A stretch of DNA of 64,000 bases from a virus, in IMG/VR virus record IMGVR_UViG_3300020469_003050, positions 1-64,000 of that record; one strand, 5' to 3'. Below are positions 13,874 through 48,144 of the stretch, piece by piece. The first letter of the stretch is position 1. Each line of letters opens with the position of its first letter. The position numbers and the translations under genes are program-made. A model generated the notes under the pieces. It had not been told where the DNA came from and ran no database searches. It saw only the letters and a list, made by a program, of their open reading frames with translations.

Positions 13874-14258
13874 TTGCGGGTCAGTTCCAAAATCAGTAAC
13901 ATATACGCCCAAACCAGTTGAGCGGCCTGAGTTAATTTTGCCTGAAACAAAAACATTGAATATGCGTAACGTTGACTTTATTGTAATGACAAGAGAAAAC
14001 GTTGAAGAAGAATTCGCTAAGTTAGAAAAAGACGGTAAAGCCATTGTTATTTTTGGGTTAGATGCAGAAGACTATGAAAAGTTATCATTCAACATAGCAG
14101 ACATTTTAGAATTATTAGACCAACAACAATCAGTCATAGTTGCGTATAGAGAATATTACGAAGAAGCAGATAAGACCCTTGAAGAAATCAATTCACAAAG
14201 CGAAGTAGAAATTGAAGTCGATAAGGAAGATGGCTTTCTTTCTAATTTTCTCAAATGA
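13800..14258 (+). CDS. o-spanin candidate (lipoprotein), overlapped architecture
   Basis: 152 aa. Signal plus lipobox: MLLRKVKQIPHVLILLTLTTFLLTS-C. The mature N-terminus is Pro-rich (PKSVTYTPKPVERPELILPE). RBS GAGGAAG. The start lies inside the upstream gene. It is longer than typical o-spanins. Confidence 0.5.
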   Translation: MLLRKVKQIPHVLILLTLTTFLLTSCGSVPKSVTYTPKPVERPELILPETKTLNMRNVDFIVMTRENVEEEFAKLEKDGKAIVIFGLDAEDYEKLSFNIADILELLDQQQSVIVAYREYYEEADKTLEEINSQSEVEIEVDKEDGFLSNFLK

Positions 14259-14641
14259 CAGACAATCCATACTCAGTTTTAAAAATCGATAAATATTCTA
14301 CAACAGATGATATCAGACAGTCTTACAAAAGGCTTATGAAGAAGCATCATCCTGACACTGGTGACGGTGACAGAGAAACATTTGATAAGGTACGACTTGC
14401 TTATATACAGTTAAAAGATAAAAAACCCGATAATGGTGTTGTAAGGACACTCAGCATAACAGTCCCTATAACAAAGCAAGACTTATCTTTAATCTTAGGC
14501 ACTAGACAAACATTCATGTGTCAGGATGTTCCTTTCGATGTAATGGTTCCTTATGAGACTAGAATTAATGATACTATTGTTGTTAAAAAAATACTAGGTG
14601 ACTTGTCACTTAAAATAAAATTCAAGGAAGACAATGAGTAA
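14255..14641 (+). CDS. J-domain (DnaJ-like) co-chaperone
   Basis: 128 aa. Canonical J-domain: NPYSVLKIDKYSTTDDIRQSYKRLMKKHHPDTGDGDRETFDKVRLAYIQL, with intact HPD. Confidence 0.8.
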   Translation: MTDNPYSVLKIDKYSTTDDIRQSYKRLMKKHHPDTGDGDRETFDKVRLAYIQLKDKKPDNGVVRTLSITVPITKQDLSLILGTRQTFMCQDVPFDVMVPYETRINDTIVVKKILGDLSLKIKFKEDNE

Positions 14642-16850
14642 AGCAGATAGAGTAAATGTTTCGATTGAACGTGCCGTACAACATGCAAATTCTTTAGCAC
14701 ATGAATATGTGACACTAGAACATCTTTTATATTCAATTATAGAAGAACAAGATGTTAGCGACATGCTTACGAAAATGAAATGTGACGTTAGATTTATTTT
14801 AGAAGAACTAGAAAAGTATCTAAATGAACGTGATGATATTACAAAAGGTGAAGATAATAGTGTACCTAGAAAAACTCTATCATTAGACCGTGTTTTCAAT
14901 CGTGCAGTAACACAGGTAATCTTTAGTGGTCGTTCTAAACTTCAAGTAAGAGATATATTTGTTTCTCTATTGAGTGAAAATGGTTCTACTGCTTATTACA
15001 TTCTAAAACAATCAGGTGTAACAAGAGATAAAGCAATCGATATTCTAAGAAAAGAATATTACGGTACGCAACAAGGTAGAGACATGGCAGGTCCTCCGGG
15101 TCAAGGAGCACCAGTAAGATTTGAAGACTATTGTTTAGATTTAAATCAACAAGCATTAGACGGAGTAATTGATCCAGTTATTGGACGGGAAGATGAGTTA
15201 ATTGAATTAACAGAGGTACTAGCAAGACGTAAAAAGAATAATGCTATTATTGTAGGTGAACCTGGAGTAGGTAAAACTGCAATAGCAGAAGGTCTTGCAT
15301 TGATGATTGGCGAAGGTCATGTACCAGAGATATTAAAAGACAAAACAGTTTATTCACTAGATGTTACATCGCTTGTAGCAGGTACAAAGTATCGTGGTGA
15401 ATTTGAAGAAAGAGCGAAAGCAGTATTTGACCAACTATCAAGTAAAGATAATGTAATATTATTCATTGATGAAATTCATATGATTATGGGTGCAGGTTCG
15501 GCAGGTGGGTCTAACATAGATATTGCAAACTTATTAAAACCACTGTTAGCAAGTGGTAAATTACATTGTATTGGTGCAACAACAAGTGAAGAATACAGAG
15601 AAAACTTTGAAAAAGATAGAGCATTACAAAGACGTTTTCAAAAACTAGTTATTGAACAACCAAACAAAGAAAATACAAAATTAATTTTGAAAGGCTTGAA
15701 ACAATATTACGAAGCATATCACGAAGTTGAATACACAAACGAGTCTATAGACTTAGCAGTTGAATTAGCAGAAAGATATATGCATGGTAAGTTCAATCCT
15801 GATAGAGCGATTGATGTCCTTGATGTAGCAGGTGCAAGAGCAAAGTTACACAAGCACAAGGGCAAAATTAATAAGGCAGAAATAGAACAAGCTATTTCAA
15901 AAATTACAAGAATTCCTTTAGAAATGATAGATGCAAAACAAAATGCAAACTATGAAAAACTAGAAGAAAATATTAAGACAAAACTATTTGGACAAGACAA
16001 AGCAGTTGGTTCATTAGTTGAATCTATACTCGTATCTAAATCAGGTATGAGAGCAAGAAATAAACCTATTGGTTCATTCTTGTTTGTAGGTCCAACAGGA
16101 ACAGGTAAAACTGAATTGTGTAGACAGTTAGCAGAAAATCTTGATGTTAAACTTAGAAAGTACGATATGTCAGAATACATGGAACAACATTCTGTATCTA
16201 AACTTATCGGTGCCCCTCCAGGGTACGTAGGACACGCCGACGGCGGGGCTGGTGCTGGACAACTAATCAGTGATGTAGATGAAACACCTAATTGTGTTGT
16301 TCTATTAGACGAAGTTGAGAAAGCCCACCCAAGTGTAATGAACCTCTTATTACAAGTTATGGACGATGGTCGTTTGACTAGTTCAACTGGTAAAACAGCA
16401 GACTTTAGCAATGTTATTCTTATAATGACTAGTAACTTAGGAGCGGCACAACAATCTAAGAGTGCTATAGGGTTCACGAATTCAAATGAAGGTGCTTCAT
16501 ACGAAGCAGTTAAGAAATTCTTTACACCAGAGTTTAGAAATAGACTTGACGCAATGGTTGAATTTGTTTCATTAGAACGTGAACATATAGACATGATTGT
16601 TACCAAAACAATCAAAGAAATTAATGAAATGTTATCAGATAAAAATGTAACTATTAAATTATCAGCAAAAGCAAAAACATGGCTGAGAAATAAAGGATAT
16701 CAACCTGATATGGGAGCGAGACCTTTACAACGTGTAGTCAACGATTACATTAAAAAGCCGTTATCAAAAGAAATATTATTTGGTAAACTTGTTGATGGTG
16801 GACTGGTAACTATCAAAATTGTAGATGATAGGATTGAGTTTGTATACTGA
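14634..16850 (+). CDS. clpA: ClpA-type double-ring AAA+ unfoldase
   Basis: 738 aa. Clp N-domain (HEYVTLEHLLYSII). D1 Walker A GEPGVGKTAIAEGLA and ILFIDEIH. D2 Walker A GPTGTGKTELCRQLA and VLLDEVEKAH. No ClpB middle domain. A ClpP-docking-type tripeptide is present (SAIGFTNS). Confidence 0.9.
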   Translation: MSKADRVNVSIERAVQHANSLAHEYVTLEHLLYSIIEEQDVSDMLTKMKCDVRFILEELEKYLNERDDITKGEDNSVPRKTLSLDRVFNRAVTQVIFSGRSKLQVRDIFVSLLSENGSTAYYILKQSGVTRDKAIDILRKEYYGTQQGRDMAGPPGQGAPVRFEDYCLDLNQQALDGVIDPVIGREDELIELTEVLARRKKNNAIIVGEPGVGKTAIAEGLALMIGEGHVPEILKDKTVYSLDVTSLVAGTKYRGEFEERAKAVFDQLSSKDNVILFIDEIHMIMGAGSAGGSNIDIANLLKPLLASGKLHCIGATTSEEYRENFEKDRALQRRFQKLVIEQPNKENTKLILKGLKQYYEAYHEVEYTNESIDLAVELAERYMHGKFNPDRAIDVLDVAGARAKLHKHKGKINKAEIEQAISKITRIPLEMIDAKQNANYEKLEENIKTKLFGQDKAVGSLVESILVSKSGMRARNKPIGSFLFVGPTGTGKTELCRQLAENLDVKLRKYDMSEYMEQHSVSKLIGAPPGYVGHADGGAGAGQLISDVDETPNCVVLLDEVEKAHPSVMNLLLQVMDDGRLTSSTGKTADFSNVILIMTSNLGAAQQSKSAIGFTNSNEGASYEAVKKFFTPEFRNRLDAMVEFVSLEREHIDMIVTKTIKEINEMLSDKNVTIKLSAKAKTWLRNKGYQPDMGARPLQRVVNDYIKKPLSKEILFGKLVDGGLVTIKIVDDRIEFVY

Positions 16851-31695: not shown

Positions 31696-32151
31696 ATGGC
31701 AAACTTTAAACATCACATAAGATTAATGATGAAAGAAGAATGGAACAAACACGATATTAAAGGTGTTATTACTGTTCTTAAGAAAGCTATTGCCAATATA
31801 TTTGAGCCAAGAGAAGATGGTACCGCAGTAGTCTATCATATGATGGACGATTTTCATGTATACGATTTTCGTATGAATAGAGCGGTAACAGAAGCCGAAG
31901 CAGAAGTGGTGCTAAAATTATTACAAAACTGGACTGATAAAGATTTTACTATGGAAATTACTACTAGTGAAAAATTTGACATTCCAGAGGGTGAGACCGA
32001 AATAGATTTATCTTCAATACGACACAATAGATGGGTTTCTAGTCGTGTTGCTGAAGGATGGAGATATGGTCTACGATTTGACGAAGAGGAAAAAACCGAT
32101 CCCAGATTACGACCGTATCATGAATTAACGGAAAAGCTGAAAAGTCTATGA
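31696..32151 (+). CDS. RyR-domain protein
   Basis: 151 aa. The C-terminal IRHNRWVSSRVAEGWRYGLRFDEEEKTDPRLRPYHELTEKLK matches the RyR-repeat signature (hE.W...r...GW.yG......k..P.l.py.eL.e). Confidence 0.65.
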   Translation: MANFKHHIRLMMKEEWNKHDIKGVITVLKKAIANIFEPREDGTAVVYHMMDDFHVYDFRMNRAVTEAEAEVVLKLLQNWTDKDFTMEITTSEKFDIPEGETEIDLSSIRHNRWVSSRVAEGWRYGLRFDEEEKTDPRLRPYHELTEKLKSL

Positions 32152-32160: not shown

Positions 32161-32189
32161 TTGACTTTAGTTGAAAAATGATATATTAT
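32161..32189 (+). promoter_or_regulatory. sigma70-type promoter in front of the Fe-S cluster gene block
   Basis: TTGACT (32161-32166), 17 nt, TATTAT (32184-32189). A TGa-TATATT alternative lies 2 nt upstream. Confidence 0.55.
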
Positions 32190-32208
32190 TAGAGTATAGG
32201 TATATAAA

Positions 32209-32748
32209 ATGTCTGGAATAAAACGAATATATGGTCTTGAAGAAAAGAACTACTACAAGTTCTTTGGTATTGATGAAAAGCAAGGGATAAGTGTACGTAG
32301 TCTTACGACACATTATAAGAAGATTCTAACAATCCTTAAGAAGGATACATCATTTACAGGACAAGACAGATTAGCATTTGCCAACAGGGCTTTCGAAACC
32401 TTGGCAGATCCTATTGCCCGTGCAAGATATTTACTTGAATTAAAAGGTCATGAAAATGATTTCAGAGACGGTGTTAGACCTGATGATATGGTTTTCATTA
32501 ATCAACTAAAACATCAACTTGAGGAACAAACTACAAGCGAAGATGTTATCTCTTTTATTGAAGAATTAAAAGACCAAACTCAGTTTATTAAAGACCAAAT
32601 AGAACAAAGCATTGATACATATCAGAATTACAAAACTGCTAGTGGATTATTGAATAGATTTTACGAAATATCAGAAATTCACCAAGAAGCAAAATCGAAA
32701 CAAGAAAAGATTGAGGAGGGGATAACCTATGTTGTATTTAACAGATAA
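32209..32748 (+). CDS. hscB: HscB-like Fe-S co-chaperone with degenerate HPD motif
   Basis: 179 aa, collinear with HscB: NYYKFFGI..., ETLADPIARARYLLELKG (compare QTLRHPLMRAEYLLSLHG), then a helical C-domain. The HPD position reads KKD. Confidence 0.65.
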   Translation: MSGIKRIYGLEEKNYYKFFGIDEKQGISVRSLTTHYKKILTILKKDTSFTGQDRLAFANRAFETLADPIARARYLLELKGHENDFRDGVRPDDMVFINQLKHQLEEQTTSEDVISFIEELKDQTQFIKDQIEQSIDTYQNYKTASGLLNRFYEISEIHQEAKSKQEKIEEGITYVVFNR

Positions 32749-33058
32749 TTCCACAACAAGAATTAAAAAATGGTTATCTCAGAACCCAGGTAAAAAAGCA
32801 AGATTAAGTATAAAAACAGCCGGGTGTACTGGTTTCATGTATGAAGTTCTACTTGACGAAAAATTCAATATAGAAGATGACTTTGCTATTAAATACGATG
32901 ACTTTGACATTCTCGTAGAACATAAATATTTTCACACTATTGACGGAGCAACATTGGATTATGTTACTGATACTAAGAGTATGAGTTCGCATTTTGAACT
33001 TGTAAGTAATCCAAATGAAAAAGCACGTTGTGGATGTGGAGAGAGTTTTACGGTATGA
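32729..33058 (+). CDS. iscA: IscA/HesB-family Fe-S carrier
   Basis: 109 aa. The three conserved Cys are present: GCTGFMY and C-terminal CGCGESFTV. Confidence 0.85.
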   Translation: MLYLTDNSTTRIKKWLSQNPGKKARLSIKTAGCTGFMYEVLLDEKFNIEDDFAIKYDDFDILVEHKYFHTIDGATLDYVTDTKSMSSHFELVSNPNEKARCGCGESFTV

Positions 33059-33777
33059 ATGAGAGATTAAACATAGAAAAACACGCAATAAATCAAGCAC
33101 GTAGATGCCAAAGGAACTGGGACCTTTCTAAAGAAGTAGATGAAGAACACATAAATCATTGGATTTATCTAGCAACTACGGCACCATCAAAACAAGATGA
33201 AAGTTTTTTTGATTTATATGTAGTTACTGATAGAACAAAATTAGATTATCTCTACAAGGAACATTCATGGGGATTTACAATGTTGCCTGGTATGAAAGAT
33301 TGGGTCGGAAGAAACCCACAAATGGGAGCAAACTGTTTGTTTGTTTTCAATAGAAAGATGAATGAAGAAGAAATTCGTAATAACGAAAAAGATGGAAGTG
33401 TAAGAGATCCAAATGCTTCAAGTAGATGGGACAATGCATTTACATCGATTGGTATAGCAAGTGGCATAGTAGCCTTTAGTGCAAGTATGATGGGTTATGT
33501 TACTGGTTATGGTAAGAATTTTGGTTACATTGAAGAACCAAAACACAGTCAAGATGTATGGGGTGAAGTTCTCGGCATTAAGAAAGAAGATAACAACTTG
33601 ACATATAGTTTGGGAATTGGTTACCCAGATGAAAGCCTTCAATGGTATCAAAGTAAAGATAATAACGAATATCTAACAGGAGGGCCTGTTAACTATTCAA
33701 TCCAGTCTACTGATACTGATTTAAAATATTCAACATATTCTAAATTAGCCAGAGACATAAAGGTGTGGCGAGTATGA
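33055..33777 (+). CDS. nitroreductase-family flavoprotein (tentative)
   Basis: ORF track gives 33028..33777. ATG 33055 forms an ATGA overlap. The N-terminal RRCQRNWDLSKEVDEEHINHWIYLATTAPSKQDESFFDLYVVTD fits the nitroreductase signature (R.S.R.f......l..i...a..APS..n.q......v). Confidence 0.55.
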   Translation: MNERLNIEKHAINQARRCQRNWDLSKEVDEEHINHWIYLATTAPSKQDESFFDLYVVTDRTKLDYLYKEHSWGFTMLPGMKDWVGRNPQMGANCLFVFNRKMNEEEIRNNEKDGSVRDPNASSRWDNAFTSIGIASGIVAFSASMMGYVTGYGKNFGYIEEPKHSQDVWGEVLGIKKEDNNLTYSLGIGYPDESLQWYQSKDNNEYLTGGPVNYSIQSTDTDLKYSTYSKLARDIKVWRV

Positions 33778-34097
33778 TTTTTACAGAAAAAGCGGCTACG
33801 AGAGTAGAAGAAATTATAAAAGAACAGGGTGAATCTTCTGGTACGGCATTAAGAGTGTTCGTAGAAGGAGGAGGTTGCCATGGGTTCAGTTACGGTTTTG
33901 GTTTTGAAAAAGACCTTAAAGATGATGATAGTATCTATGAAACTAATGGCGTGAAGTTAGTAGTAGATAGTATGTCAATCATGTATCTAGCAGATGCAAA
34001 AGTAGATTATATCTCTAGCCTACAAGGCGACAGATTTGTAATCGATAACCCAGGAGCACAAACTACATGTGGATGTGGTTCTAGCTTCTCAGTATAA
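33774..34097 (+). CDS. IscA/ErpA-type A-type Fe-S carrier
   Basis: MIFTEKAATRVEEII..., LRVFVEGGGCHGFSYGF, C-terminal CGCGSSFSV. ATG 33774 forms an ATGA overlap (track start 33765 is GTG). Confidence 0.9.
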   Translation: MIFTEKAATRVEEIIKEQGESSGTALRVFVEGGGCHGFSYGFGFEKDLKDDDSIYETNGVKLVVDSMSIMYLADAKVDYISSLQGDRFVIDNPGAQTTCGCGSSFSV

Positions 34098-34123
34098 TCA
34101 ACCAGAGGACGAAAGAAAAAATA

Positions 34124-34363
34124 ATGGAAGTAAAAGATAAAGTGTATGAAATAACTGCACGAAAAATGAAACGGCAGGTCTCTGACTTGAATGATGATAC
34201 CAATCTAAAGAAAGATTTGGGTGCTGATAGTATCGATACAGTTGAAATTGTATTTGAAGTAGAAGAATTCTATAAAATTGCTATTCCAGATGAATACGCA
34301 GAAACTATCAATACTATTGGTGATGCAGTCAAGTGTGTAGAGGATATGCTAAAAAATCAATAG
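34124..34363 (+). CDS. acyl carrier protein
   Basis: 79 aa. Phosphopantetheine-attachment motif LGADSIDTVEIVFEVEEFY (compare AcpP LGADSLDTVELVMALEEEF). Confidence 0.85.
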   Translation: MEVKDKVYEITARKMKRQVSDLNDDTNLKKDLGADSIDTVEIVFEVEEFYKIAIPDEYAETINTIGDAVKCVEDMLKNQ

Positions 34364-34372: not shown

Positions 34373-34825
34373 ATGTCGAAAACTCTAAGGTGGTGGTTGT
34401 TCTTTTGTATATCACTAACAATCATGGGAATATCTCATTATTTCGGATTGTTTTATGAATTATATGAAAAGGACGTAACTAAGATTAGCTTTGGTATCAT
34501 AGGCTTGTATATATTTACAAGTTTGTATATCGGTAAGTTAACGATGGATTATAAAGAAGGTGAAAACATCGATTCCGGATTAGGTGTCGGTTGGTTCATA
34601 TCAGAAAGTATGTTGGCGTTAGGTATGATAGGTACCGTAGCAGGATTTATTCTGATGTTAGGTTCAAGTTTTGAAGGATTAGATGTAGATGATACTGCAA
34701 GTCTAAAAGAAACTCTAACAGATATGGCTATGGGTATGAGTACTGCATTGTATACGACACTTACGGGTCTTATATTCAGTCAGTTTACTAAGATACAGTT
34801 AGTCAACCTTGAGAGTCGTGACTGA
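34373..34825 (+). CDS. MotA/TolQ/ExbB-family proton-channel protein (minimal, 150 aa)
   Basis: Three TM segments. Family signatures: LGMIGTVAGFILM and MSTALYTTLTGLIFSQF. Confidence 0.7.
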   Translation: MSKTLRWWLFFCISLTIMGISHYFGLFYELYEKDVTKISFGIIGLYIFTSLYIGKLTMDYKEGENIDSGLGVGWFISESMLALGMIGTVAGFILMLGSSFEGLDVDDTASLKETLTDMAMGMSTALYTTLTGLIFSQFTKIQLVNLESRD

Positions 34826-35460
34826 TGAACAAAAACAAATACAAAAGCACAGTAGGATTTACAGACTTACTATTCAATCTATTAGTAGGTTTCGTATTTT
34901 TATTCATAATCGCTTTTATATTAATCAATCCAATAACTAAAAAAGCAGATGTACCTAAAAAAGCAGAGTACATGATTGTAATTGAATGGCCTACAGTAGT
35001 AACGGATGATATTGACTTATGGGTTAAAGATCCTGCAGGCAATACAGTTTCTTTTATAAAGAAAGAAAATGGTTTTATGAATCTTGAAAAAGATGATTTG
35101 GGACATTCAAATGATACGACTGTAGATGAATACGGTAATAGAAAAGTAATTTATATCAATAGAGAAGTAATCACATTACGTGGTATTATAAAAGGAAGAT
35201 ATCAAGTAGCCGCTCACGTATATGCAATGAGACCTTGGGAAGTAAAAAAGAATATTGAAAAGAAAGATTTGATAATTAAAGTAAAAGTTATTAAAATAAA
35301 TCCTTATAGAGAAGTATACATTGGTGAGAAAAACTACGAATTTAAAGGTCAACAAATACCATTAGTTAACTTTTGGCTAGACAAAGATGGGAAATTTGTT
35401 AAATACAATACGTTAGATAATAATATCATAACGAGAAAGGCAAGTAGCGGCGGACTTTAA
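34825..35460 (+). CDS. single-TM protein in the ExbD/TolR position, with a beta-rich periplasmic domain
   Basis: 211 aa. The N-terminal GFTDLLFNLLVGFVFLFIIAFIL resembles the ExbD/TolR TM. The ectodomain contains DIDLWVKDPAGNTVSF. ATGA-type coupling (TGATG) to the channel gene. Confidence 0.45.
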   Translation: MNKNKYKSTVGFTDLLFNLLVGFVFLFIIAFILINPITKKADVPKKAEYMIVIEWPTVVTDDIDLWVKDPAGNTVSFIKKENGFMNLEKDDLGHSNDTTVDEYGNRKVIYINREVITLRGIIKGRYQVAAHVYAMRPWEVKKNIEKKDLIIKVKVIKINPYREVYIGEKNYEFKGQQIPLVNFWLDKDGKFVKYNTLDNNIITRKASSGGL

Positions 35461-37238: not shown

Positions 37239-37703
37239 ATGAAACTTAATACACTTACCACCGGATTAATATATCCTGCATTATATTTTGCTATGTTTAT
37301 AGCATTGTTTGTAGTGCCTGCATTCGCAGATGATATGACTATCGAAATGTTGAACAAACGTGACGATGGTGCTAAGATGGTTTACAGTGAGGATATCGCA
37401 AACATTGACGTAGGCGATACAATTACTTGGGTACCAACATCAAAAGGTCATAATGTACAATTCATTGCTGGACCAGATGGTTGGGATATTCCAAAGAAAT
37501 CAAAAAACAACAAAGAAGTTGCAATCACTTTTGACGTACCAGGCGTATATCTATATCAGTGTACACCACATGCAACAATGGGTATGATTGCTATTGTAAT
37601 GGTAGCAGAAGGTGGCGAAGTCCCACTAAATGATATCAGCAAAGCAAAGGTCAGAGGCAAGAGCAAAAAGAAACTAAAAGAATTGCTTGATGAACTATCT
37701 TAA
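37239..37703 (+). CDS. pseudoazurin-like type-1 blue copper protein
   Basis: 154 aa. Signal peptide ...FVVPAFA-DD. Cupredoxin ligand pattern: GHNV (His) and YQCTPHATMGMIAIVMV (Cys-x2-His-x4-Met, pseudoazurin spacing). Confidence 0.8.
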   Translation: MKLNTLTTGLIYPALYFAMFIALFVVPAFADDMTIEMLNKRDDGAKMVYSEDIANIDVGDTITWVPTSKGHNVQFIAGPDGWDIPKKSKNNKEVAITFDVPGVYLYQCTPHATMGMIAIVMVAEGGEVPLNDISKAKVRGKSKKKLKELLDELS

Positions 37704-38103
37704 ACGCATAAGTGAAAAACTACCGGAGTTCTGTTTGTCTCATTGGCTATACAGAATTCCCTTAGCCATTGTGTTTATTCAACAAGGTCTAAGTAAGTTT
37801 CCAGTAACATTGGAAGGGGCTGAGTCTTTTGACTTGCCCTACATTGTTTGGTGGGTTGTTGCTTATGGGGAACTAGGCGCAGGTCTAGGTCTACTCGTAG
37901 GCGGAGCATTCAACACAGATTATATACGTTGGATAGGAGACCTAATTACACGTTTCTCAGGTATTACAATCTGTTGTATAATGACAGGTGTTATCTGGGT
38001 AGGCGAACCTGAAAGTCTACTAGACGTAATTCTATATGATAACTTTCACGTATTTCTATGGGTAGGTGGGTTATTCTTTGCACTAAGAGGTAATAGAGGC
38101 TAA
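37690..38103 (+). CDS. DoxX-like integral membrane protein (tentative)
   Basis: 137 aa, four hydrophobic segments. The N-terminal LYRIPLAIVFIQQGLSKF resembles the DoxX signature. Confidence 0.45.
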   Translation: MNYLKRISEKLPEFCLSHWLYRIPLAIVFIQQGLSKFPVTLEGAESFDLPYIVWWVVAYGELGAGLGLLVGGAFNTDYIRWIGDLITRFSGITICCIMTGVIWVGEPESLLDVILYDNFHVFLWVGGLFFALRGNRG

Positions 38104-38890: not shown

Positions 38891-39310
38891 TTATGCTACA
38901 GTGATAGCAAAACGCCAATCTGTAATATTTCTTACTGTATGATGTGTGTTTACTGACAGTTTATACCATTCTTCTTTAGGTAAAATGACAGTATCTATTG
39001 GATTTTGTGAAGTTTTTTCTTCAAACCAGCATGTCTCAACATTATCTCCTCCTGGAGATATGATATAGTTTATTGCAAAATCTCTGCCTCTATCGATATG
39101 CACTGGTATATCTTCTGTTAATGTTTGATATCTAAACTTAGTACAATCGGGGAATAAGGGTTGTAGATATTCTCTTAACTCAGATTGACATTCATGTATT
39201 GTATAATTCTTACTTTTACCACCAAATATATTTTCAAGTTTTAATACTTCATACATTGGTAATATTAAATTATCTGGTACCTTTGGTAAGTCTAATTTGG
39301 TGTAGTTCAT
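38891..39310 (-). CDS. cupin / 2OG-Fe(II)-oxygenase-like protein (tentative)
   Basis: 139 aa. HxD...H pattern: IPVHIDRGRDFAINY ... NTHHTVRNI. Overlaps the upstream gene by 4 nt. Confidence 0.4.
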   Translation of the reverse strand: MNYTKLDLPKVPDNLILPMYEVLKLENIFGGKSKNYTIHECQSELREYLQPLFPDCTKFRYQTLTEDIPVHIDRGRDFAINYIISPGGDNVETCWFEEKTSQNPIDTVILPKEEWYKLSVNTHHTVRNITDWRFAITVA

Positions 39311-39987
39311 AATAGTAACTCTTTCAACGTTGGTATACTATCAGTGCTTAATGAAATAAAAAATTGATATACGTTATCACCGATAGAACTTGCATCATGT
39401 ATTACATGTGTATCTGTTATATATAATCTACCTGCTTCTATATCTTTTTCTCTTACTAAATCATATGATAGATTACCCTCTGCCACTTCTCTTGGACTGG
39501 CTGTTTTTCTATCTTTATCAAATTGAAATATCATATTATCTGGATCATTGGTTCCCCATAGTCTAATAATATCACTAGGTATTTTAGTATCTGTATGTGG
39601 TTTAAAATGTCCAGTAGTATGCCACTTTAATATAGCACTTCTATACATAAAAGGTTTAATTGGTTCAAGAGGATCAAAGCATGATTCTGATAACATTGGA
39701 GTAGGTGAAGTACATTTCGGGTCACGTACTTTATCTTCTTCTTTCTTTCCTTCGTTCCATTGATTTAATGGATAACATATAGGTTCTGGATTGTTGAACA
39801 TATCTCCGTTTAAATTAACGAGAGGAGCTCCATATCTTGGATATTCAGTGTGTTTAGTACCCCAACGTCTAAATGCATATCTGTATTCATGCATTTGTTC
39901 TTCAAACAAATTTACATCAATTTTCATATCAAGAGGTTGTAATACAGTTGGATGAAACTTATTATATTCTTCTAGTCCTAATGACAT
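39307..39987 (-). CDS. cupin / Asp-Asn-beta-hydroxylase-like 2OG oxygenase (tentative)
   Basis: 226 aa. HFKPHTDTK ... LYITDTHVIHDASS fits the H-x-D ... H facial triad spacing of the family. Confidence 0.4.
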   Translation of the reverse strand: MSLGLEEYNKFHPTVLQPLDMKIDVNLFEEQMHEYRYAFRRWGTKHTEYPRYGAPLVNLNGDMFNNPEPICYPLNQWNEGKKEEDKVRDPKCTSPTPMLSESCFDPLEPIKPFMYRSAILKWHTTGHFKPHTDTKIPSDIIRLWGTNDPDNMIFQFDKDRKTASPREVAEGNLSYDLVREKDIEAGRLYITDTHVIHDASSIGDNVYQFFISLSTDSIPTLKELLL

Positions 39988-40002
39988 TTCGTGTCCTTTA
40001 CA

Positions 40003-40590
40003 TTAATAGTAACCGAAAGCCCAATACTTCTCTTTACACCACCAACATTCTTTACATGGTCTAGGCAGACTTTCACTTTCACAACTGATAGTTAAGTTTG
40101 CTAGGTCTTGTAAATTATGTTCGTTATATAATTCTGCTACCGTTTGTTTAGTACTATTTATAAACGGACGATAATGATATACCCCATGTGATGAGATTAC
40201 TCTAATTTCTCGCTTTTTGTCTCTACTTTCATCACGTCCTTCTGTCATTAATTCAGAGGGATTAAGTGTCATACCAGTTAAGATACCTGATGCTTGATGT
40301 TTATTAATAAGTCTATCTCTAGTTTTGGTTCTGTTGTTTCGTGCTTCATTTCTGTCTTTATAGTATCCAATATAATGTTCTTCAATTCTGTTTGGAAATC
40401 TTGCATGTAACCAATTCGTAATTGCTATTACATTAAATAGATTATAGTAATTTAAAGATTGATGACATACACTACTTAAGACCAGCTTTGTATTTGGTAA
40501 CTCTTTTAGAACTAGATAAGAGAGCAACGCACTATCAAGTCCGCCACTCAACATCATTACATATGTTCCAGAGTTAGGTATGTCTTTCAT
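40003..40590 (-). CDS. PP-loop ATP pyrophosphatase, QueC-like
   Basis: 195 aa. N-terminal PP-loop VMMLSGGLDSALLSY. C-terminal Cys cluster SCESESLPRPCKECWWCKEK, similar to the QueC zinc site. Confidence 0.7.
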   Translation of the reverse strand: MKDIPNSGTYVMMLSGGLDSALLSYLVLKELPNTKLVLSSVCHQSLNYYNLFNVIAITNWLHARFPNRIEEHYIGYYKDRNEARNNRTKTRDRLINKHQASGILTGMTLNPSELMTEGRDESRDKKREIRVISSHGVYHYRPFINSTKQTVAELYNEHNLQDLANLTISCESESLPRPCKECWWCKEKYWAFGYY

Positions 40591-41291
40591 TATTTTATAC
40601 CAGTAAAACTACGATGTACTGTGTTATCCAGAACTTTTTTATAATCTTTGTTCTTAGTTAAATCTTTCAATTTAGAATCTTGTGAAATTAATTCTTCTTC
40701 ACTTCTAAATTCAGATGGTAGACCAAGTTTTTCAAACACTTCATATATTGATAGTTGTTGTAAATCAAAGAAGTTTTCTATATTTGTATTTTCTATATTA
40801 ATTTGTTTAATCATACGTGCATCATTTTCGTACCAATCATAATGTGGATACGATATATCCCAACCACCTACTTTGTTTCTCCACCAATCAAAACAAAAAT
40901 CAGATGGCATATACACAGCCATAATCTTTGATTTTGGAAATAAGTCTTGTAGTAAAGGAAGATGATATGCAAACCAATGACTTTTTATTATCTTAACACC
41001 ATAGTTAAAATCTTTATATGGCTTTTTGAATTCTTTTATAATTTCATCTTTTGTCATATCTTGTAGATTATCAAATCTTTGACCTTGATTATGATATGGA
41101 CCCCAATAAGCACCTCGATGCCAACCATACTGTTTTGTTTTACCATTAGGTGTAACATAGTCTCTGGCGTATTCTAGTTCGCTTCTTTCATCACTAATAT
41201 TAATATTTGGATTAGTACTAATAGCACGTAAGGTGCCACTCCATCTACTTCCAGGAGCACCCGTTGCCAATATTAAATCTTGTCCGTCCAT
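40590..41291 (-). CDS. P-loop / sulfotransferase-fold protein, paralog A
   Basis: 233 aa. ATGAPGSRWS near the N-terminus. IIKSHWFAYHLPLLQDLFPKSKIMAVYMPSDFCFDWW fits the sulfotransferase pattern (sH....l...fP.aKiI...R.P.d...S). Confidence 0.5.
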   Translation of the reverse strand: MDGQDLILATGAPGSRWSGTLRAISTNPNINISDERSELEYARDYVTPNGKTKQYGWHRGAYWGPYHNQGQRFDNLQDMTKDEIIKEFKKPYKDFNYGVKIIKSHWFAYHLPLLQDLFPKSKIMAVYMPSDFCFDWWRNKVGGWDISYPHYDWYENDARMIKQINIENTNIENFFDLQQLSIYEVFEKLGLPSEFRSEEELISQDSKLKDLTKNKDYKKVLDNTVHRSFTGIK

Positions 41292-42364
41292 AATTTTTCT
41301 CTGCTATTGTGTGATAGAACTTTTTTAAGTGCTAGTTTAGAACTTATACCATCGAATTGTAAATTGCAGTGGTCGTTCCCATAGCATATTGTATCTTCTG
41401 GTAATCTCCATAAGAAGTCTATTGCATTTTGATAACTCTGTTTACTTGTCTTTAGTAAGTTACTTGGTATTCTTTTTAATGCTCCGTCCCACCATATTAT
41501 TCCTTGTCCATTAGTATCAATAGAACTAATATCTTTTATATTCATTCTATGCCACTTATGATTTAAACTTTTGTATTTGTTCCAGTGTTCTTGCCATTTG
41601 TCTCCAAAATGATTCTGTACATCTTCCCATACGACTTTCCATTTTCTATCTTCACTAGTAAATTTCTTTCTATTCCAAAGTGACATACTAGGAAATTTAT
41701 TGTTAAGATGTTCTATCCATGATTCAAAATCATTTCCATCCCAATTTTCAATAGTATACTTGTGAACATGAAGACTTATCTTTGAGATATCGACATGATG
41801 TATTACAGACTTCTCATTAAACCCATGATGGTCTAATATACAGTTAATGAAAAATCCACTACTTACTGTTATTGCCCAATCAACTGGCTTAGTTACATTT
41901 CCGTAATTTGGTATTTCATTGTGCATTAGATATGTAATATTACTATCATCAATTAAACTTGTTAAAATGATATCATGGCTATTATAAAATTCTTCTGCAC
42001 TATCTGTGTTTAACTTGTGAATAAACTTTGCTTTTACATGGGTTGTACCTTCGCCCAATGGTTTATGAAACCAAACATCATCACTAAAATGTATATACTC
42101 ATGCTTTGATGCTTCTATCATTTCTTTATAATGATGTTCATATGCACCCCACAAGAATATAGTTCCAGCATTAACAACCATAACAATATCATAGTCATGT
42201 AAGTAAGTGTAACTGTCCATTACATAATAATCAACTTGATTTTCTGTTGGTAATCTATTACATTCTTGATAATCTAAACTTAATTGTGTGTAATTTAGAG
42301 CAATCTTATCGTGGTGTTCATTTCCATTTTTAAGTACAACGATTGCATATTTTAGTTTTGTCAT
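41273..42364 (-). CDS. hypothetical enzyme-sized protein
   Basis: 363-aa ORF inside the operon, His/Trp-rich. No motif I can name. Confidence 0.6.
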   Translation of the reverse strand: MTKLKYAIVVLKNGNEHHDKIALNYTQLSLDYQECNRLPTENQVDYYVMDSYTYLHDYDIVMVVNAGTIFLWGAYEHHYKEMIEASKHEYIHFSDDVWFHKPLGEGTTHVKAKFIHKLNTDSAEEFYNSHDIILTSLIDDSNITYLMHNEIPNYGNVTKPVDWAITVSSGFFINCILDHHGFNEKSVIHHVDISKISLHVHKYTIENWDGNDFESWIEHLNNKFPSMSLWNRKKFTSEDRKWKVVWEDVQNHFGDKWQEHWNKYKSLNHKWHRMNIKDISSIDTNGQGIIWWDGALKRIPSNLLKTSKQSYQNAIDFLWRLPEDTICYGNDHCNLQFDGISSKLALKKVLSHNSREKLWTDKI

Positions 42365-43077
42365 TATAATCTTTCATCTATCCTATCAAAGTTATAATAA
42401 GCAATATGAGTGTCTAACGTAACGTCCCTACTAGGATCATTCTTTTCGAAGAAATAACCTTCTATACTTTTTATAAATCTATTCTCACTATCAGTTATAT
42501 CCCAATAGTCTTTCCAATGTTTACTTGTTGCAGTATGTACTGTTAAGTTTCTGTTAAATATCCATTGTCTAGCATCTTTAGTTTCTTCTTTAATATATTC
42601 ACGTGCAGTTTCTTCATCTTTGTAATGATTATGATACTTTGGATAAGTTATATCGAAGCCCCCTGCTCCGAACCAACCTCTGTAACAACTTTCAATTGGT
42701 CTGAATACAATCATTATTTTACTTTTAGGAAAAGTCTCTGCAATGAAATCTAAATTGTTAGATATCATATGTGATTTTACAATTCTATATTCAGTTGGCT
42801 TTTCTTCTTTCCAGGCTTTGTCTATTTCATTTAAGATTTCTTGTTTTGTAAACTTATTAATCTCATGCCAGCCTTCACCTAGTTCCATACCTGTACCGAA
42901 ATAACTTCCTAAGTGTTGTGCCTTATTAAACTTAGTTGGGTGAGTATATTCTCTATCTGCATTTCTATCAGTAGTATTGATGTTAATCTTTTTTGTCATA
43001 GACAATACATTACTGACTGCACTCCATTTACTTCCAGGAGCACCTGTGAAAAATATCAATTTACTTTCATCTACCAT
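42364..43077 (-). CDS. P-loop / sulfotransferase-fold protein, paralog B
   Basis: 237 aa. FTGAPGSKWS; IVKSHMISNNLDFIAETFPKSKIMIVFRPIESCYRGWF; GGFDITYPKY. Clearly homologous to 40590..41291. Confidence 0.5.
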   Translation of the reverse strand: MVDESKLIFFTGAPGSKWSAVSNVLSMTKKININTTDRNADREYTHPTKFNKAQHLGSYFGTGMELGEGWHEINKFTKQEILNEIDKAWKEEKPTEYRIVKSHMISNNLDFIAETFPKSKIMIVFRPIESCYRGWFGAGGFDITYPKYHNHYKDEETAREYIKEETKDARQWIFNRNLTVHTATSKHWKDYWDITDSENRFIKSIEGYFFEKNDPSRDVTLDTHIAYYNFDRIDERL

Positions 43078-43864
43078 CTAAAAATCTCTTTATTCTTCGC
43101 CATTTACTATATCTATTTGGCGAAATAGTTAATACGTTATCATGGCTATAAGATTCTCTATCCCAACTTCTTTCTGCAATAGGAGAGTATACATGTTCCC
43201 AATATTCATCATCGTATTTGTCCATGTACTTTGTTTTATATTTATCCCACGCCCATATATCTCTTACAGTAAAATCAGAACCTAACTCTTTTGATATAGT
43301 TTGCAGTTTTTTACCGTATACAGTATTCTCTCCTCCTACCCATTTCATTTTAACATGACCTGGGAATAGTGCAGTAGTTTCTGTATATCTTGAGGCGATA
43401 GTATAATCATCACCTATTAGATTTATTATCTTTGCTTTAGGAAATCTTTTATTTAATTTAATCGGGTGTTCATGTGTACAGAAAACTAATCTATTCTTCT
43501 TCATTAATTCTCGACCACCCATCTTTTCAAAACGTGGATAGAAGAATCTATTGTAATAATATTCTTCATCAGGTATAAAATCTTTTACGTAATCATGTAG
43601 TGGAGGTAAAGCACCTTTTGGTACTAATCTATCATAGTGATATTTACTTGCATATCTTTGTCTGATATCTGTATGTTTGAAATGAATGTTCCAAGGATTA
43701 ATTCCATTATCTTTATGACTATACCAATGTATATCAGGTAGACAAGATATTACACGACCTACTCTGTGTCCTTTGTTTCCTTGTTCAAATGATATGAATA
43801 TTAATCTACTACCGTCTAACACTCTTTCTTCCCATATAATAATAGTGACCATCTTCTTTTGCAA
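43067..43864 (-). CDS. divergent third member of the sulfotransferase-fold family
   Basis: 265 aa. LIFISFEQGNKGHRVG at the P-loop position. THEHPIKLNKRFPKAKIINLIGD aligns with the KSH...FPKSKI block of the two paralogs. Confidence 0.45.
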   Translation of the reverse strand: MQKKMVTIIIWEERVLDGSRLIFISFEQGNKGHRVGRVISCLPDIHWYSHKDNGINPWNIHFKHTDIRQRYASKYHYDRLVPKGALPPLHDYVKDFIPDEEYYYNRFFYPRFEKMGGRELMKKNRLVFCTHEHPIKLNKRFPKAKIINLIGDDYTIASRYTETTALFPGHVKMKWVGGENTVYGKKLQTISKELGSDFTVRDIWAWDKYKTKYMDKYDDEYWEHVYSPIAERSWDRESYSHDNVLTISPNRYSKWRRIKRFLDGR

Positions 43865-44519
43865 CTATGTCGCCTGTAGCAAACCAATCGTCATAAACAC
43901 ATATGTCACCTTTTACATATAGTTCACCATCGACAATCTTTGTATCACAATGAGTTTCACTACCCATTATTGTTTCTGTTGTCTGTACTTTTATACCAGG
44001 CACAAATGTTCTATTGATTGCAACTGGACCAACTTCTGTCATACCCCAATTAACAATAAAGATTGCACCTCTATCAATAAAGTTTTGTATAATGCCACTT
44101 TGTACTCTGTCACTGCCACACATAATGATTTTATCTTCTAAGTTTAGACTATCGAAACTCTTTGTCTTCATTATCGCTCTTGCCATATCAGGTGTTAAGT
44201 GACTGTGCGTAAAATCTTTTATCTTTCTTACCCAAGAAAATGCATTAAACTTTTCTACTTCAATTTCTGCATTGACTTCATAACCTGGTAATGTTTGTGC
44301 CAGTAATCCACCTGCATGTTTTAATGTACATACGGTTAATATCTTACTGTCCTTATCTATGCCTTGCACTTCTCTAGCAATAGCATTCGCATATCTTAAC
44401 TTTTCTGGTGGCTGAAAGATATTCTTAGGAGTACCTGTTGAACCACTACTTTGTAGTATACAGCCCTCCATAATCATATCATCAAATTCGTTTTTAGTTA
44501 TACTGTCTTCTAATTTCAT
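43809..44519 (-). CDS. minimal adenylate-forming (ANL superfamily) enzyme core
   Basis: 236 aa. Motifs in order: A3 SSGSTGTPKNI, A5 NWGMTEVGP, A7/A8 WFATGDIVAKEDGHYYYMGRKS. It lacks the usual N-terminal region of about 150 aa and the C-terminal subdomain. Confidence 0.75.
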   Translation of the reverse strand: MKLEDSITKNEFDDMIMEGCILQSSGSTGTPKNIFQPPEKLRYANAIAREVQGIDKDSKILTVCTLKHAGGLLAQTLPGYEVNAEIEVEKFNAFSWVRKIKDFTHSHLTPDMARAIMKTKSFDSLNLEDKIIMCGSDRVQSGIIQNFIDRGAIFIVNWGMTEVGPVAINRTFVPGIKVQTTETIMGSETHCDTKIVDGELYVKGDICVYDDWFATGDIVAKEDGHYYYMGRKSVRR

Positions 44520-45042
44520 TATATTTTTCTACGTTTAATATCCATGTGTTTTGATTAACACTAAAAATTTCACTTACACCTAAGTTCTTAACTAGGTCTA
44601 TCTTTTCTAAATGATAAAATGTTTTATCAATTCTATTCATCTTTCCACTTGCATCATGTTCAGTATTTGTAGTGATATAAATGAATAGGTTATCTAAATC
44701 TGTTTCTTTACTTGATGCATAATCTATTTGATATGGTAGCTGACTATGAAAGCAATAACTTTGCATGTGATGTCTATTCAACCCTATCTTTTTACTTTCA
44801 GTCTGTACACCTCTAAACAATGCTCTCCACCCATTAGCCCATGGATGTATTCCGCTGACACTAACCATACGTTCATCAACGTAGGTTGCATGCCACATAC
44901 CACCTTGTTCTAAACACCAATCAAACTTCATATCTTCCAATGTGCTATTATTGTTGAAGCCTTTTGCTTCACATGTTTTTAGAAAGTTTTCAAGTTCGGG
45001 TGTTACTATATGTAGTTCCTTAGTAATAATCATGCTTGACAA
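44494..45042 (-). CDS. hypothetical protein, first gene of the minus-strand operon
   Basis: 182-aa ORF. No motif I can name; acyltransferase-like size only. Confidence 0.6.
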   Translation of the reverse strand: MSSMIITKELHIVTPELENFLKTCEAKGFNNNSTLEDMKFDWCLEQGGMWHATYVDERMVSVSGIHPWANGWRALFRGVQTESKKIGLNRHHMQSYCFHSQLPYQIDYASSKETDLDNLFIYITTNTEHDASGKMNRIDKTFYHLEKIDLVKNLGVSEIFSVNQNTWILNVEKYNEIRRQYN

Positions 45043-45471: not shown

Positions 45472-45501
45472 TTGACTTTTACTACTAAAGTATGATATAA
45501 T
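45472..45501 (+). promoter_or_regulatory. sigma70-type promoter with consensus extended -10
   Basis: TTGACT (45472-45477), 18 nt, TGaTATAAT (45493-45501). tRNA-Asp starts 27 nt downstream. Confidence 0.7.
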
Positions 45502-47197: not shown

Positions 47198-47578
47198 ATG
47201 GCATACAGTAAAAAAGTAATGGACCATTATAACAATCCACGTAATGTAGGTCGTTTCGATCCCAGTGTAGATAAAGTTGGAACTGGGATGGTAGGAGCGC
47301 CGGCATGTGGTGACGTAATGCGTTTACAGATACAAGTTGAAGACGGAGTTATAAAAGATGCTAAATTTAAAACTTATGGTTGCGGAAGTGCAATAGCAAG
47401 TTCAAGTTTAGTAACTGAAATGGTTAAGGGTAAGACATTGAAAGAGGCTCAAGAAATTAAAAACATGGACATAGTAGATGAGTTATCTTTACCTCCAGTA
47501 AAAATACATTGCAGTGTTTTAGCCGAAGATGCGATTAAATCCGCAATAGAAGATTTTAAAAGAAAGTACCACAGATAA
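47198..47578 (+). CDS. iscU: IscU Fe-S cluster scaffold
   Basis: 126 aa, collinear with bacterial IscU: VMDHYNNPRNVG, GAPACGDVMRLQI, KTYGCGSAIASSS, LPPVKIHCSVLAEDAIK. All three ligand Cys and the LPPVK HscA-binding motif are present. Confidence 0.95.
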   Translation: MAYSKKVMDHYNNPRNVGRFDPSVDKVGTGMVGAPACGDVMRLQIQVEDGVIKDAKFKTYGCGSAIASSSLVTEMVKGKTLKEAQEIKNMDIVDELSLPPVKIHCSVLAEDAIKSAIEDFKRKYHR

Positions 47579-48144
47579 TGTATATAAAGTATTATGAGAA
47601 CCCGTTCCCCCATGCAATTATAGATAACTTTTTACCTCAAGAGTTATACGATAGAATTAAGACAAACATGGAAACTTACCCAGGTGGTTTATCTGGGCTA
47701 CCAGAAACAGATGAAATAAGAAAACATTTTGGTAATGAGTTAGAAAAGATACGTAATACTTTACTTGAACAAGTACCAAATGCATCAGCAAAAGAAATGA
47801 CACCTAATGATTATATCATATGGGCAAATAGACAGTATCCACATGCTGAATATAAGAATCATAATGATTCTCCTTGGAAACGATTATCAACAGTATTATA
47901 TGTTGGTAAGTTCAATCAAGGTACAGTATTCCACGAAAGTAGTGATCCAAAAGCAAGAATTGTTGGAAACGTAGAATGGAAAGAAAATAGAGCAATGTCA
48001 TTTGTTCCATCTACATCTAGTCACCATTCATATGCAAATAAACGCAAACATTTCAGAGATACAGTACTAATAAACATGGGTTCTGTAAAAGACATAAAAA
48101 GAGAGAAAAATAGCAAGCCTTTTAGCACTATTTTGAACAAATAA
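47578..48144 (+). CDS. 2OG-Fe(II) oxygenase-family protein (tentative)
   Basis: 188 aa. The N-terminal ENPFPHAIIDNFLPQELYDRI is typical of this family. HND (HxD) is followed by a distal His (SSHHSY). Confidence 0.55.
   Translation: MYIKYYENPFPHAIIDNFLPQELYDRIKTNMETYPGGLSGLPETDEIRKHFGNELEKIRNTLLEQVPNASAKEMTPNDYIIWANRQYPHAEYKNHNDSPWKRLSTVLYVGKFNQGTVFHESSDPKARIVGNVEWKENRAMSFVPSTSSHHSYANKRKHFRDTVLINMGSVKDIKREKNSKPFSTILNK

Follow-up and report, generated by a model that had tools for sequence, protein, structure and literature searches.

A phage Fe-S assembly gene block headed by an HscB-fold protein without the HPD tripeptide, from uncultured marine jumbo phages

INTRODUCTION

The canonical bacterial arrangement of genes for iron-sulfur (Fe-S) cluster assembly by the ISC (iron-sulfur cluster) pathway is the isc operon, which runs iscR-iscS-iscU-iscA-hscB-hscA-fdx-iscX (e.g., locus L308). 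Parts of this machinery are also carried by viruses, and marine viral IscU and A-type carriers have been described as auxiliary metabolic genes (Nishimura et al. 2017, PMC5332604), after earlier Pacific Ocean virome work on viral Fe-S auxiliary genes that is cited there. This report concerns a block of five genes at positions 32209 to 34363 of a 64,000-nucleotide stretch of viral DNA (IMG/VR record IMGVR_UViG_3300020469_003050, positions 1 to 64,000), here called the window. The first gene of the block encodes a protein with the fold of the J-protein HscB but without the His-Pro-Asp (HPD) tripeptide, and it is followed by genes for two A-type Fe-S carriers, a nitroreductase-superfamily flavoprotein, and an acyl carrier protein (ACP). 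Fe-S supply limits the chemistry of radical S-adenosylmethionine (SAM) enzymes, and surface waters of the ocean are poor in iron.

The roles of HscB in cells have been reviewed by Marszalek, Craig, and colleagues (PMC9596805). According to this review, the HPD tripeptide is invariant in Hsc20 and is needed for stimulation of the Hsp70 ATPase, and Hsc20 and the desulfurase occupy overlapping faces of IscU. HscB is also described there as steadying the structured form of IscU, slowing cluster transfer when HscA is absent, and guarding Isu/IscU from Lon. The slowing of transfer in vitro by HscB alone is credited in the review to Iametti 2015, and its authors speculate that the ancestor of HscB was an IscU protector that had no J domain.

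Compared to the isc operon, the phage genome has in common IscU, an IscA-type carrier, and an HscB-type protein, whereas IscR, IscS, HscA, Fdx, and IscX were absent from the region inspected, which comprised the 64-kb window plus 10 kb on each side and covered about 84 kb of the roughly 340-kb genome. The phage adds an ErpA, a nitroreductase-type flavoprotein, and an ACP, its gene order differs, and its IscU gene is unlinked to the block. Likeness to the marine viral Fe-S genes (PMC5332604) extends to a gammaproteobacterial-type IscU, A-type carriers, radical SAM clients, and carriage by photic-zone phages. The known viral modules have no HscB-like gene, while here the carriers are paired with one and IscU lies about 13 kb away. 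IscU stands next to one or two carriers on many IMG/VR contigs, and among the loci listed none also had an HscB-like gene.

RESULTS AND DISCUSSION

An HscB-fold protein heads the block

The preliminary description of the window, made from the letters alone, had proposed five genes forming an ISC-type block of phage origin. All five open reading frames (ORFs) were confirmed on the plus strand and matched to families, and both the phage origin and the ISC-type assignment were supported. The block and its upstream signals are as follows.

32161-32189, + strand: sigma70-like promoter heading the block, TTGACT (32161-32166), 17 nt, TATTAT (32184-32189)
32196-32202, + strand: conserved ATAGGTA ribosome-binding-like motif, 3' of the promoter
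32209-32748, + strand: HscB-fold protein, 179 residues (NCBIfam HscB models, profile, and fold)
32729-33058, + strand: A-type Fe-S carrier 1, 109 residues (TIGR00049)
33055-33777, + strand: nitroreductase-superfamily flavoprotein, 240 residues (PF00881, profile, and fold)
33774-34097, + strand: ErpA-type carrier, 107 residues (NF010147)
34124-34363, + strand: AcpP-like ACP, 79 residues (PF00550; serine in ADSID)

Overlapping stops and starts had been described throughout the block. This held for the first three junctions, where the HscB-like gene and carrier 1 overlap by 20 nt and the next two are ATGA overlaps, and failed before the ACP gene, which is preceded by a 26-nt gap.

The claim that the first protein is an HscB homolog along its whole length was borne out by profile and fold comparisons. 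The 179-residue protein matched four NCBIfam HscB models over their full length (E values from 1.5e-11 to 5e-8), yet scored under every curated HscB cut-off (38.1 versus 46.75 for TIGR00714 and 45.2 versus 198 for NF002935), and a Pfam scan gave no DnaJ or HSCB_C match. When a profile of its family (38 members, 58 to 96% identical, 34 invariant columns) was compared to the Protein Data Bank (PDB), only HscB, HSC20, and Jac1 structures were recovered at E values of ≤0.04, led by 4it5 (1e-7), 1fpo (1e-5), and 3bvo (1e-4). An AlphaFold2 model with a predicted local distance difference test (pLDDT) score of 86.6 had the architecture of the HscB fold, a J-like domain followed by a C-terminal three-helix bundle. 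The best ten PDB matches to this model in Foldseek were all HscB, HSC20, or Jac1 proteins from E. coli, Vibrio, human, and yeast, with TM-scores of 0.56 to 0.73 over about 160 to 175 aligned columns. The predicted likeness to these proteins (1fpo, 4it5, 3bvo, and 3uo2) thus spans the full two-domain fold at a similar size, and alignments showed that the helix III-IV signature residues T64, L65, P68, R71, and Y74 are retained.

Among 1.84 billion representative sequences, the family formed one isolated cluster (297 bits), the next match being a canonical HscB at 59 bits. The nearest cellular relative in the first word-indexed homology search (P0068) is encoded in a textbook iscR-iscS-iscA-hscB-hscA-fdx-iscX operon, and the phage gene adjoins an A-type carrier gene much as hscB adjoins iscA in isc operons. 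The phage protein is a true HscB-fold homolog, and the homology is real at the level of both profile and fold. Because the HPD is missing and the curated cut-offs are missed, it is not to be filed as a bona fide HscB; "HscB-fold, J-like protein" is the accurate label.

The HPD tripeptide is lost throughout the family

The position equivalent to the HPD had been read as KKD in the window protein, and three independent alignments agree on K44-K45-D46 (Lys-Lys-Asp). The loss extends across the family: at the aligned positions, H and P are missing from all 38 members. The three columns hold K/N/S/G/R, K/E/D/Q/N, and D/E/N/Q/L, respectively, and are followed by an 8-residue deletion. For comparison, 82 cellular HscB proteins chosen for a length of 160 to 190 residues and for the presence of an HPD were aligned with the family (121 sequences), and all 82 of these HPD-selected proteins placed the tripeptide in one column. 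Without such selection, the HPD was present in 132 of 137 distant matches of at least 140 residues. Realignment thus did not bring the tripeptide back, and the protein remained HscB-like. An HPD hidden by misalignment was considered and rejected, since the three alignment methods concur and H-P-D occurs at this place in none of the family members. A decaying pseudogene was rejected as well, given that the gene is retained in all 19 related loci compared below and has 34 invariant columns.

Three short non-phage HscB-like representatives of 150 to 166 residues (P0127, P0156, and P0205) also have no HPD. Because of these, HPD-less HscB proteins may occur sporadically outside the phage family.

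Conservation within the family is unevenly distributed. The loop that replaces the HPD is among the least conserved segments (entropy of 1.89 bits), and the most conserved segments are a 13-residue N-terminal extension, which is not found in cellular HscB, and helices I and II (0.55 to 0.63 bits), with R30, H35, K37, and K38 of helix II invariant. The phage protein therefore differs from cellular HscB in having no HPD, in a variable loop that is 8 residues shorter, and in the N-terminal extension; in addition, the acidic IscU-contact residues and F153 are not kept, and no hscA-fdx pair is adjacent.

The window encodes a second J-domain protein, the gene for which overlaps the start of a gene for a large unfoldase.

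14255-14641, + strand: second J-domain protein, 128 residues, with an intact HPD (KKHHPDTG)
14634-16850: ClpA-like AAA+ unfoldase, 738 residues (TIGR02639, 902 bits)

These two proteins look like a phage chaperone-unfoldase pair. The second J-domain protein keeps its HHPD and so acts as an internal control; the HPD loss is, judging by the alignments, specific to the HscB-like protein, in which it is fixed lineage-wide. It follows from the family alignment that the HscB-like protein probably cannot activate HscA in the canonical manner and would work in a different way.

Other J-fold proteins offer partial parallels. HPD-less J-like proteins such as mitochondrial Pam16/Tim16 are expected to bind partners without stimulating the Hsp70 ATPase, and Pam16 works paired with the true J-protein Pam18. 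The phage protein resembles Pam16/Tim16 in keeping the J fold and losing the HPD, but its lineage and context are unrelated, and nothing here points to pairing with a host HscB. Among phage J-domain proteins, Rki of the T4-like phage RB43 keeps its HPD and acts through DnaK. Rki and the HscB-like protein are alike as phage-borne J-fold proteins aimed at the host chaperone network; whereas Rki and the J-domain protein at 14255 to 14641 keep the HPD, the HscB-like protein has none and carries an HscB-type C-terminal domain.

The family belongs to uncultured marine jumbo phages

Annotation of the window identified its source as a jumbo phage, with genes for tail-fibre and head-decoration proteins, PhoH, the ClpA-like unfoldase, and a T4-type family-B DNA polymerase, along with six tRNAs. 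The closest GenBank relatives of the polymerase were those of the 470- to 490-kb phages Phosso and Atu_ph07 and of Rak2-like phages, at 42 to 48% identity. Bacterial contamination was rejected as an origin of the block, the flanks being phage tail, head-decoration, and T4-type DNA polymerase genes. An identical HscB-like protein was found on metagenomic contigs of up to 237 kb, the longest contig carrying a family member measured 369 kb, and Tara, JGI, and ENA contigs with the family number in the hundreds. The family belongs to an uncultured jumbo-phage lineage that is common in marine metagenomes.

The nucleotide sequence of the block had no match in 50,697 GenBank phage records, and the HscB-like protein had none in a tblastn search of GenBank phages or in a PHROGs scan. 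No HscB-fold protein was found in the BFVD viral structure library at an E value of ≤1e-3, and full-text searches of the literature combining HscB with phage returned nothing relevant. The preliminary description had allowed that the genes might be common and collinear in a well-described phage group of known function; they are common and collinear, but in uncultured marine jumbo phages for which no functional description was found, and for this reason their commonness does not count against the finding. The viral HscB-like protein is a previously undescribed third component beside the known viral IscU and A-type carriers. It adds to those known proteins a component present on hundreds of contigs.

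One carrier is constant, and the other block genes are optional

Gene order was compared across 19 related loci, which came from IMG/VR and from metagenome assemblies. The HscB-like gene was present in all 19, and in every one an ErpA-type or other A-type carrier gene lay directly 3' of it, mostly within 25 nt or overlapping. Carrier 1, of the IscA/SufA-like type, was present in 10 loci, the ACP in 12, and the nitroreductase in 6. The five-gene order described for the window thus stands as an arrangement, recurring in full in lineages whose HscB-like proteins are only 60% (L104) and 71% (L106) identical to the window copy, and fails as an obligate unit. Because the complete order recurs in lineages this distant, the fuller block is probably ancestral, with repeated losses since.

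The genes flanking the block are listed below.

31696-32151: RyR-domain protein (Pfam PF02026, 40 bits), directly 5' of the block in all relatives
34373-34825, + strand: MotA/ExbB-like channel protein, 10 nt past the ACP gene
34825-35460, + strand: membrane protein of 211 residues with an ExbD/TolR-like transmembrane aspartate

The codirectional string of genes runs past 34363 into the MotA/ExbB-like gene and then the 211-residue membrane protein, and this pair is probably on the same transcript as the Fe-S block. The pair was directly 3' of the Fe-S block in every relative, so that it and the RyR-domain gene on the 5' side were as constant as the carrier. The transmembrane segment of the 211-residue protein, FTDLLFNLLVGF, resembles the aspartate helix of ExbD/TolR. 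As a lead for future work, the pair might be tied to iron uptake of the TonB type, or might have a Zorya-like function. In one subclade (L011 to L015, L017, and L021; e.g., L014, 11306 to 12145), a secreted-looking protein of 279 residues, rich in Thr, Gly, and Ser, is encoded between the carrier or ACP gene and the MotA/ExbB-like gene.

Carriers, nitroreductase, and ACP

Both carriers are well-supported members of the A-type family. Carrier 1 scored 83.3 bits against TIGR00049 (cut-off, 58.8), has Cys33, Cys101, and Cys103, and is of a generic IscA/SufA-like kind, failing the ErpA equivalog NF010147 (66.2 versus 117). The ErpA-type carrier passed both models (146.7 versus 117 for NF010147 and 115.1 versus 58.8 for TIGR00049) and has Cys35, Cys99, and Cys101. 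The three cluster-ligating cysteines (C-x(n)-C-G-C) were kept by all carrier orthologs examined. Against GenBank phages, the ErpA-like protein matched 11 records, most of which resemble bacterial contamination or very large metagenomic phages.

Assignment of the third protein to the nitroreductase superfamily was marginal by PF00881 (25.0 versus 23.5) and much clearer by other means. Homolog lengths favor the ATG at 33055 as its start. A family profile had only nitroreductase-family structures as top matches (best E value, 3.9e-7), and a model with a pLDDT of 92.4 gave 180 PDB fold matches at an E value of ≤1e-3, of which the best 50 were essentially all flavoproteins of the superfamily. A single-sequence search of the PDB gave no match, and neither the profile nor the fold searches matched the protein to a subfamily. 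Its motif RRCQRNW is presumably a variant of the flavin mononucleotide-binding motif. A homolog with 31% identity in Pelagibacter phage Mosig is encoded in a sugar/nucleotide-modification cluster that has no Fe-S genes.

The ACP scored 42 bits against PF00550 (cut-off, 20.8), with the phosphopantetheine serine in ADSID, and fell just under two AcpP equivalog cut-offs (68.8 versus 70.45 and 70.6 versus 71). The serine of the DSI motif was kept in all 12 orthologs. In mitochondria, ACP is part of the NFS1-ISD11-ACP complex, and an interaction between ACP and IscS has been reported in E. coli. The likeness to the mitochondrial complex lies in the association of an ACP with Fe-S biogenesis, which here is genomic alone and seen in 12 of 19 lineages, and no ISD11/LYR protein or desulfurase was seen near the phage ACP. 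Since only the HscB-like gene and one carrier are universal, with the nitroreductase in 6 and the ACP in 12 of 19 loci, the mitochondrial analogy is weakened and may serve as a lead rather than as a feature of the system. Position alone ties the nitroreductase and the ACP to cluster assembly.

A minus-strand cluster at 38891 to 45042 encodes a QueC/PP-loop-like protein (40003-40590), a protein with a weak sulfotransferase-like match (42364-43077), and a fragment of an AMP-binding adenylating enzyme (43809-44519, with 44494-45042 upstream). This cluster is a possible modification pathway, and its adenylating enzyme a possible partner of the ACP.

A conserved sigma70-like promoter precedes the block

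The promoter that had been placed at 32161 was present, in the 57-nt spacer that separates the HscB-like gene from the RyR-domain gene. All 15 upstream regions compared kept TTGAC, TAT(T/C/A)AT, and ATAGGTA while nearby bases varied, with identity of the HscB-like protein as low as 58%. A generic promoter scan of the window showed no enrichment (23 sites versus 27.7 expected from shuffles). The stricter class TTGAC-N17-19-TAYNAT was enriched 4-fold, with 8 sites versus 2.06 expected, and none of 100 shuffles reached 8. These sites lie at the following positions.

5512, 32161, 36189, 45036, 45060 (minus strand), 45472, 48160, and 59540: TTGAC-N17-19-TAYNAT

By a nonsystematic look, the eight sites seem to coincide with the beginnings of gene blocks or to lie close to them, and the one at 45472 heads the unit that holds IscU. 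The class looks like a sigma70-like promoter class of the phage, and expression of the block is probably dependent on host RNA polymerase and early.

IscU, candidate clients, and missing components

The remaining Fe-S genes of the window lie outside the block.

47198-47578, + strand: IscU scaffold, 126 residues (TIGR01999, 215.5 versus a cut-off of 192.4), with PACGD, YGCGS, LPPVK, and HCS
9335-10687, + strand: twitch-domain radical SAM enzyme (NF033640, 258.8 bits)
56062-57384, + strand: twitch-domain radical SAM enzyme (NF033640, 172.7 bits)

An IscU at 47198 and two radical SAM clients had both been proposed, and the model matches agree with both proposals. We take the PACGD, YGCGS, LPPVK, and HCS motifs of IscU to represent the three cluster cysteines, Asp39, and the HscA-binding site, in E. 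coli IscU numbering. The gene lies about 13 kb from the carriers in a separate promoter unit. Its product is 75 to 83% identical to IscU of many Gammaproteobacteria in GTDB genomes, including Sedimenticola, Thiothrix, and Granulosicoccus, and is too conserved to give the name of a host. An IMG/VR scan with IscU returned at least 80 loci, and among the matches listed none was syntenic with the window; a scan with the neighboring symporter settled the co-occurrence of IscU and the HscB-like protein for close relatives only. In the IscU regions of L310, L311, and L312, the flanking symporter is 88 to 98% identical to that of the window, IscU 77%, and the next gene 68 to 71%. Because the symporter is far more alike than IscU and the gene after it, this pattern suggests that the IscU cassette may have been swapped between lineages.

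That next ORF (47578-48144, 188 residues) shares one base with the IscU stop codon, begins PFPHAIIDNFLP, and has an H-x-D followed by a later His. By eye it looks like a 2-oxoglutarate-Fe(II) oxygenase, and it had no Pfam or PDB sequence match. It was also considered as a hidden ISC partner and rejected, since no protein of related structure came up.

The two twitch-domain radical SAM enzymes are likely Fe-S clients, judging by their family. Further components were looked for in the window and its 10-kb flanks by Pfam scans of nearly every ORF of at least 110 residues, by tblastn with E. coli queries, and in the annotation of the flanks, and no IscS, HscA/DnaK, ferredoxin, CyaY, IscX, monothiol glutaredoxin, Nfu, or AcpS turned up; the preliminary description had likewise seen no IscS, HscA, or Fdx. 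Within 10 kb on the right flank (L307, 15686 to 20783) are genes for a phosphoribosyltransferase, flavodoxin, GTP cyclohydrolase I, SAM synthetase, and rhodanese. Considered with the QueC-like gene of the window, these genes suggest 7-deazaguanine metabolism or metabolism in support of radical SAM enzymes. By its gene content the genome looks equipped for radical SAM chemistry, with scaffold, carriers, SAM, and reductant of its own and a desulfurase from the host.

An IMG/VR contig (L245, 585 to 4566) encodes, in a row, DnaK (621 residues), Hsp20, ClpS, heme oxygenase, and a bilin-reductase-like protein, and shares several homologous genes (about 31 to 62% identity) with the left end of the window. 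A DNA-pattern search with DLGGGTFD for phage Hsp70 returned, among the matches listed, only this partially sharing contig with DnaK, and is uninformative for the genome of the window.

Proposed role of the HscB-fold protein

We tentatively favor, at somewhat short of even chances, a reading of the block as an early Fe-S supply module for the phage radical SAM enzymes, in which the HscB-like protein acts without Hsp70 activation as an escort or adaptor. The block would be read from its host-type promoter early in infection. Phage IscU, which has every residue needed, would receive sulfur from host IscS, and one or two A-type carriers would pass clusters to the two twitch-domain radical SAM enzymes, with 7-deazaguanine or other modification enzymes probably among the further clients. 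With the HPD switch lost, the HscB-fold protein would have no canonical HscA activation and would keep the Hsp70-independent roles of its relatives, displacing loaded IscU from IscS, holding structured IscU, and shielding it from proteases. Its N-terminal extension and helices I and II would dock it to the phage ErpA-type carrier, so that clusters would be channeled to phage clients and away from the host HscA route. A bolder form of this proposal is that the protein is a natural Hsp70-independent HscB that captures cluster-loaded IscU from the host IscS complex for the phage A-type carriers, making it a viral hijack adaptor and a present-day instance of the protective or escort function proposed to predate the J domain (PMC9596805); this form is conceivable but doubtful.

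Several points weigh against an escort or adaptor. The canonical IscU-binding helix (E. coli L92 to E104) is poorly conserved in the family (entropy of 1.76 bits), E100 is lost, and F153 aligns with a glutamate (E153). We take the IscU-binding hot spots of HscB to be L92, L96, F153, E97, E100, and E104 in E. coli numbering, which reportedly derive from the work of Füzéry et al. At these positions, E. coli L92 corresponds to F or Y in 35 of 38 family sequences, M93 corresponds to I or V, and L96 falls in a 2-residue gap for which L100 is a possible substitute. Since the hydrophobic set F96, L100 (seen only in an 18-sequence alignment), and F151, which is invariant, could stand in for the canonical residues, and with Y152 common as well, binding of IscU by the phage protein is plausible but not established. 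A pure escort could also be inhibitory, because HscB alone is cited as slowing transfer in vitro (Iametti 2015, as cited in PMC9596805). These phages generally keep a rigid gene order, which makes adjacency a weaker sign of functional coupling than it would be in bacteria. Finally, with about 84 kb of about 340 kb inspected, a phage HscA, IscS, or Fdx could be encoded elsewhere.

A close rival, which overlaps the escort or adaptor and is not mutually exclusive with it, is a host-takeover decoy for which inhibition is the selected function. The HPD-less mimic would occupy host IscU, or the HscB site of HscA by way of the basic invariant helix II, without ATP hydrolysis, thereby stalling host Fe-S maturation while the phage carriers take clusters directly. 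J-proteins mutated in the HPD are classic examples of loss-of-function or dominant-negative variants, which speaks for a decoy, as does loss of the HPD in a protein whose helix II residues R30, H35, K37, and K38 stayed invariant; the host-type promoter, suggesting early expression, fits as well. It is also in keeping with a decoy that HscB without HscA slows transfer from IscU and that HscB competes with IscS for IscU (PMC9596805). However, the phage needs Fe-S enzymes and would block its own LPPVK-bearing IscU too, and the canonical IscU-binding helix is not well conserved, so a decoy is unlikely in our estimate. Less probable again is an integrated five-gene machine, in which the flavoprotein replaces ferredoxin or reduces Fe(III) and the ACP stabilizes or regulates the host desulfurase in the manner of mitochondrial ACP-ISD11-NFS1. 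Such a machine would account for the full order in L104 and L106 despite 60 to 71% identity of their HscB-like proteins, which suggests an ancestral arrangement, and for the overlapping start and stop codons across the block, the DSI serine in all ACP copies, and the lack of an Fdx nearby. It is at odds with the persistence of the other genes where the nitroreductase (13 of 19 loci) or the ACP (7 of 19) is missing, with the Mosig homolog in a cluster without Fe-S genes, with the flavodoxin encoded elsewhere in the genome, and with the lack of any ISD11/LYR protein.

Two further explanations appear quite improbable. The HscB-like protein might be an Hsp70 cochaperone that works by a non-HPD mechanism, with host HscA or DnaK, or a phage Hsp70 encoded outside the approximately 84 kb inspected, as its partner. 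The J-like domain is the best conserved part of the protein, L245 shows that a contig sharing genes with the left end of the window can encode a full DnaK, and about a quarter of the genome was inspected. Set against this, the HPD is called invariant in Hsc20 (PMC9596805) and was kept in 132 of 137 unselected matches, the second phage J-protein retains it, neither the window nor its 10-kb flanks yielded an Hsp70, and the variability of the replacing loop across the family means that there is no substitute motif. Recruitment of the HscB fold outside Fe-S traffic, for example as an adaptor for the RyR-domain or MotA/ExbB-like neighbors, with carrier adjacency a historical remnant, would fit the relaxation of both the HPD and the IscU-binding helix, the new and conserved N-terminal extension, and neighbors as constant as the carrier. 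Yet linkage to the carrier is complete (19 of 19 loci, often with overlapping codons), the promoter separates the RyR-domain gene from the HscB-like gene, and IscU and Fe-S clients are encoded in the same genome, leaving this explanation very unlikely. The non-HPD cochaperone, the five-gene machine, and the role outside Fe-S traffic are all less likely than an escort or adaptor.

A natural protein under strong purifying selection would here separate scaffold binding from Hsp70 activation, and the much-debated Hsp70-independent roles of HscB become directly testable with a small soluble protein. The HscB-like protein could also reveal competition between virus and host for assembled clusters.

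Other genes of the window

A plastocyanin/azurin-family copper protein (37239-37703) is followed by a DoxX-family membrane protein (37687-38103), and the pair is kept in close relatives. At 52415 to 56065, a 1,216-residue fusion joins an HD phosphohydrolase, a nucleotidyltransferase of the CCA-adding/poly(A) polymerase type, and a 5'-3' deoxyribonucleotidase.

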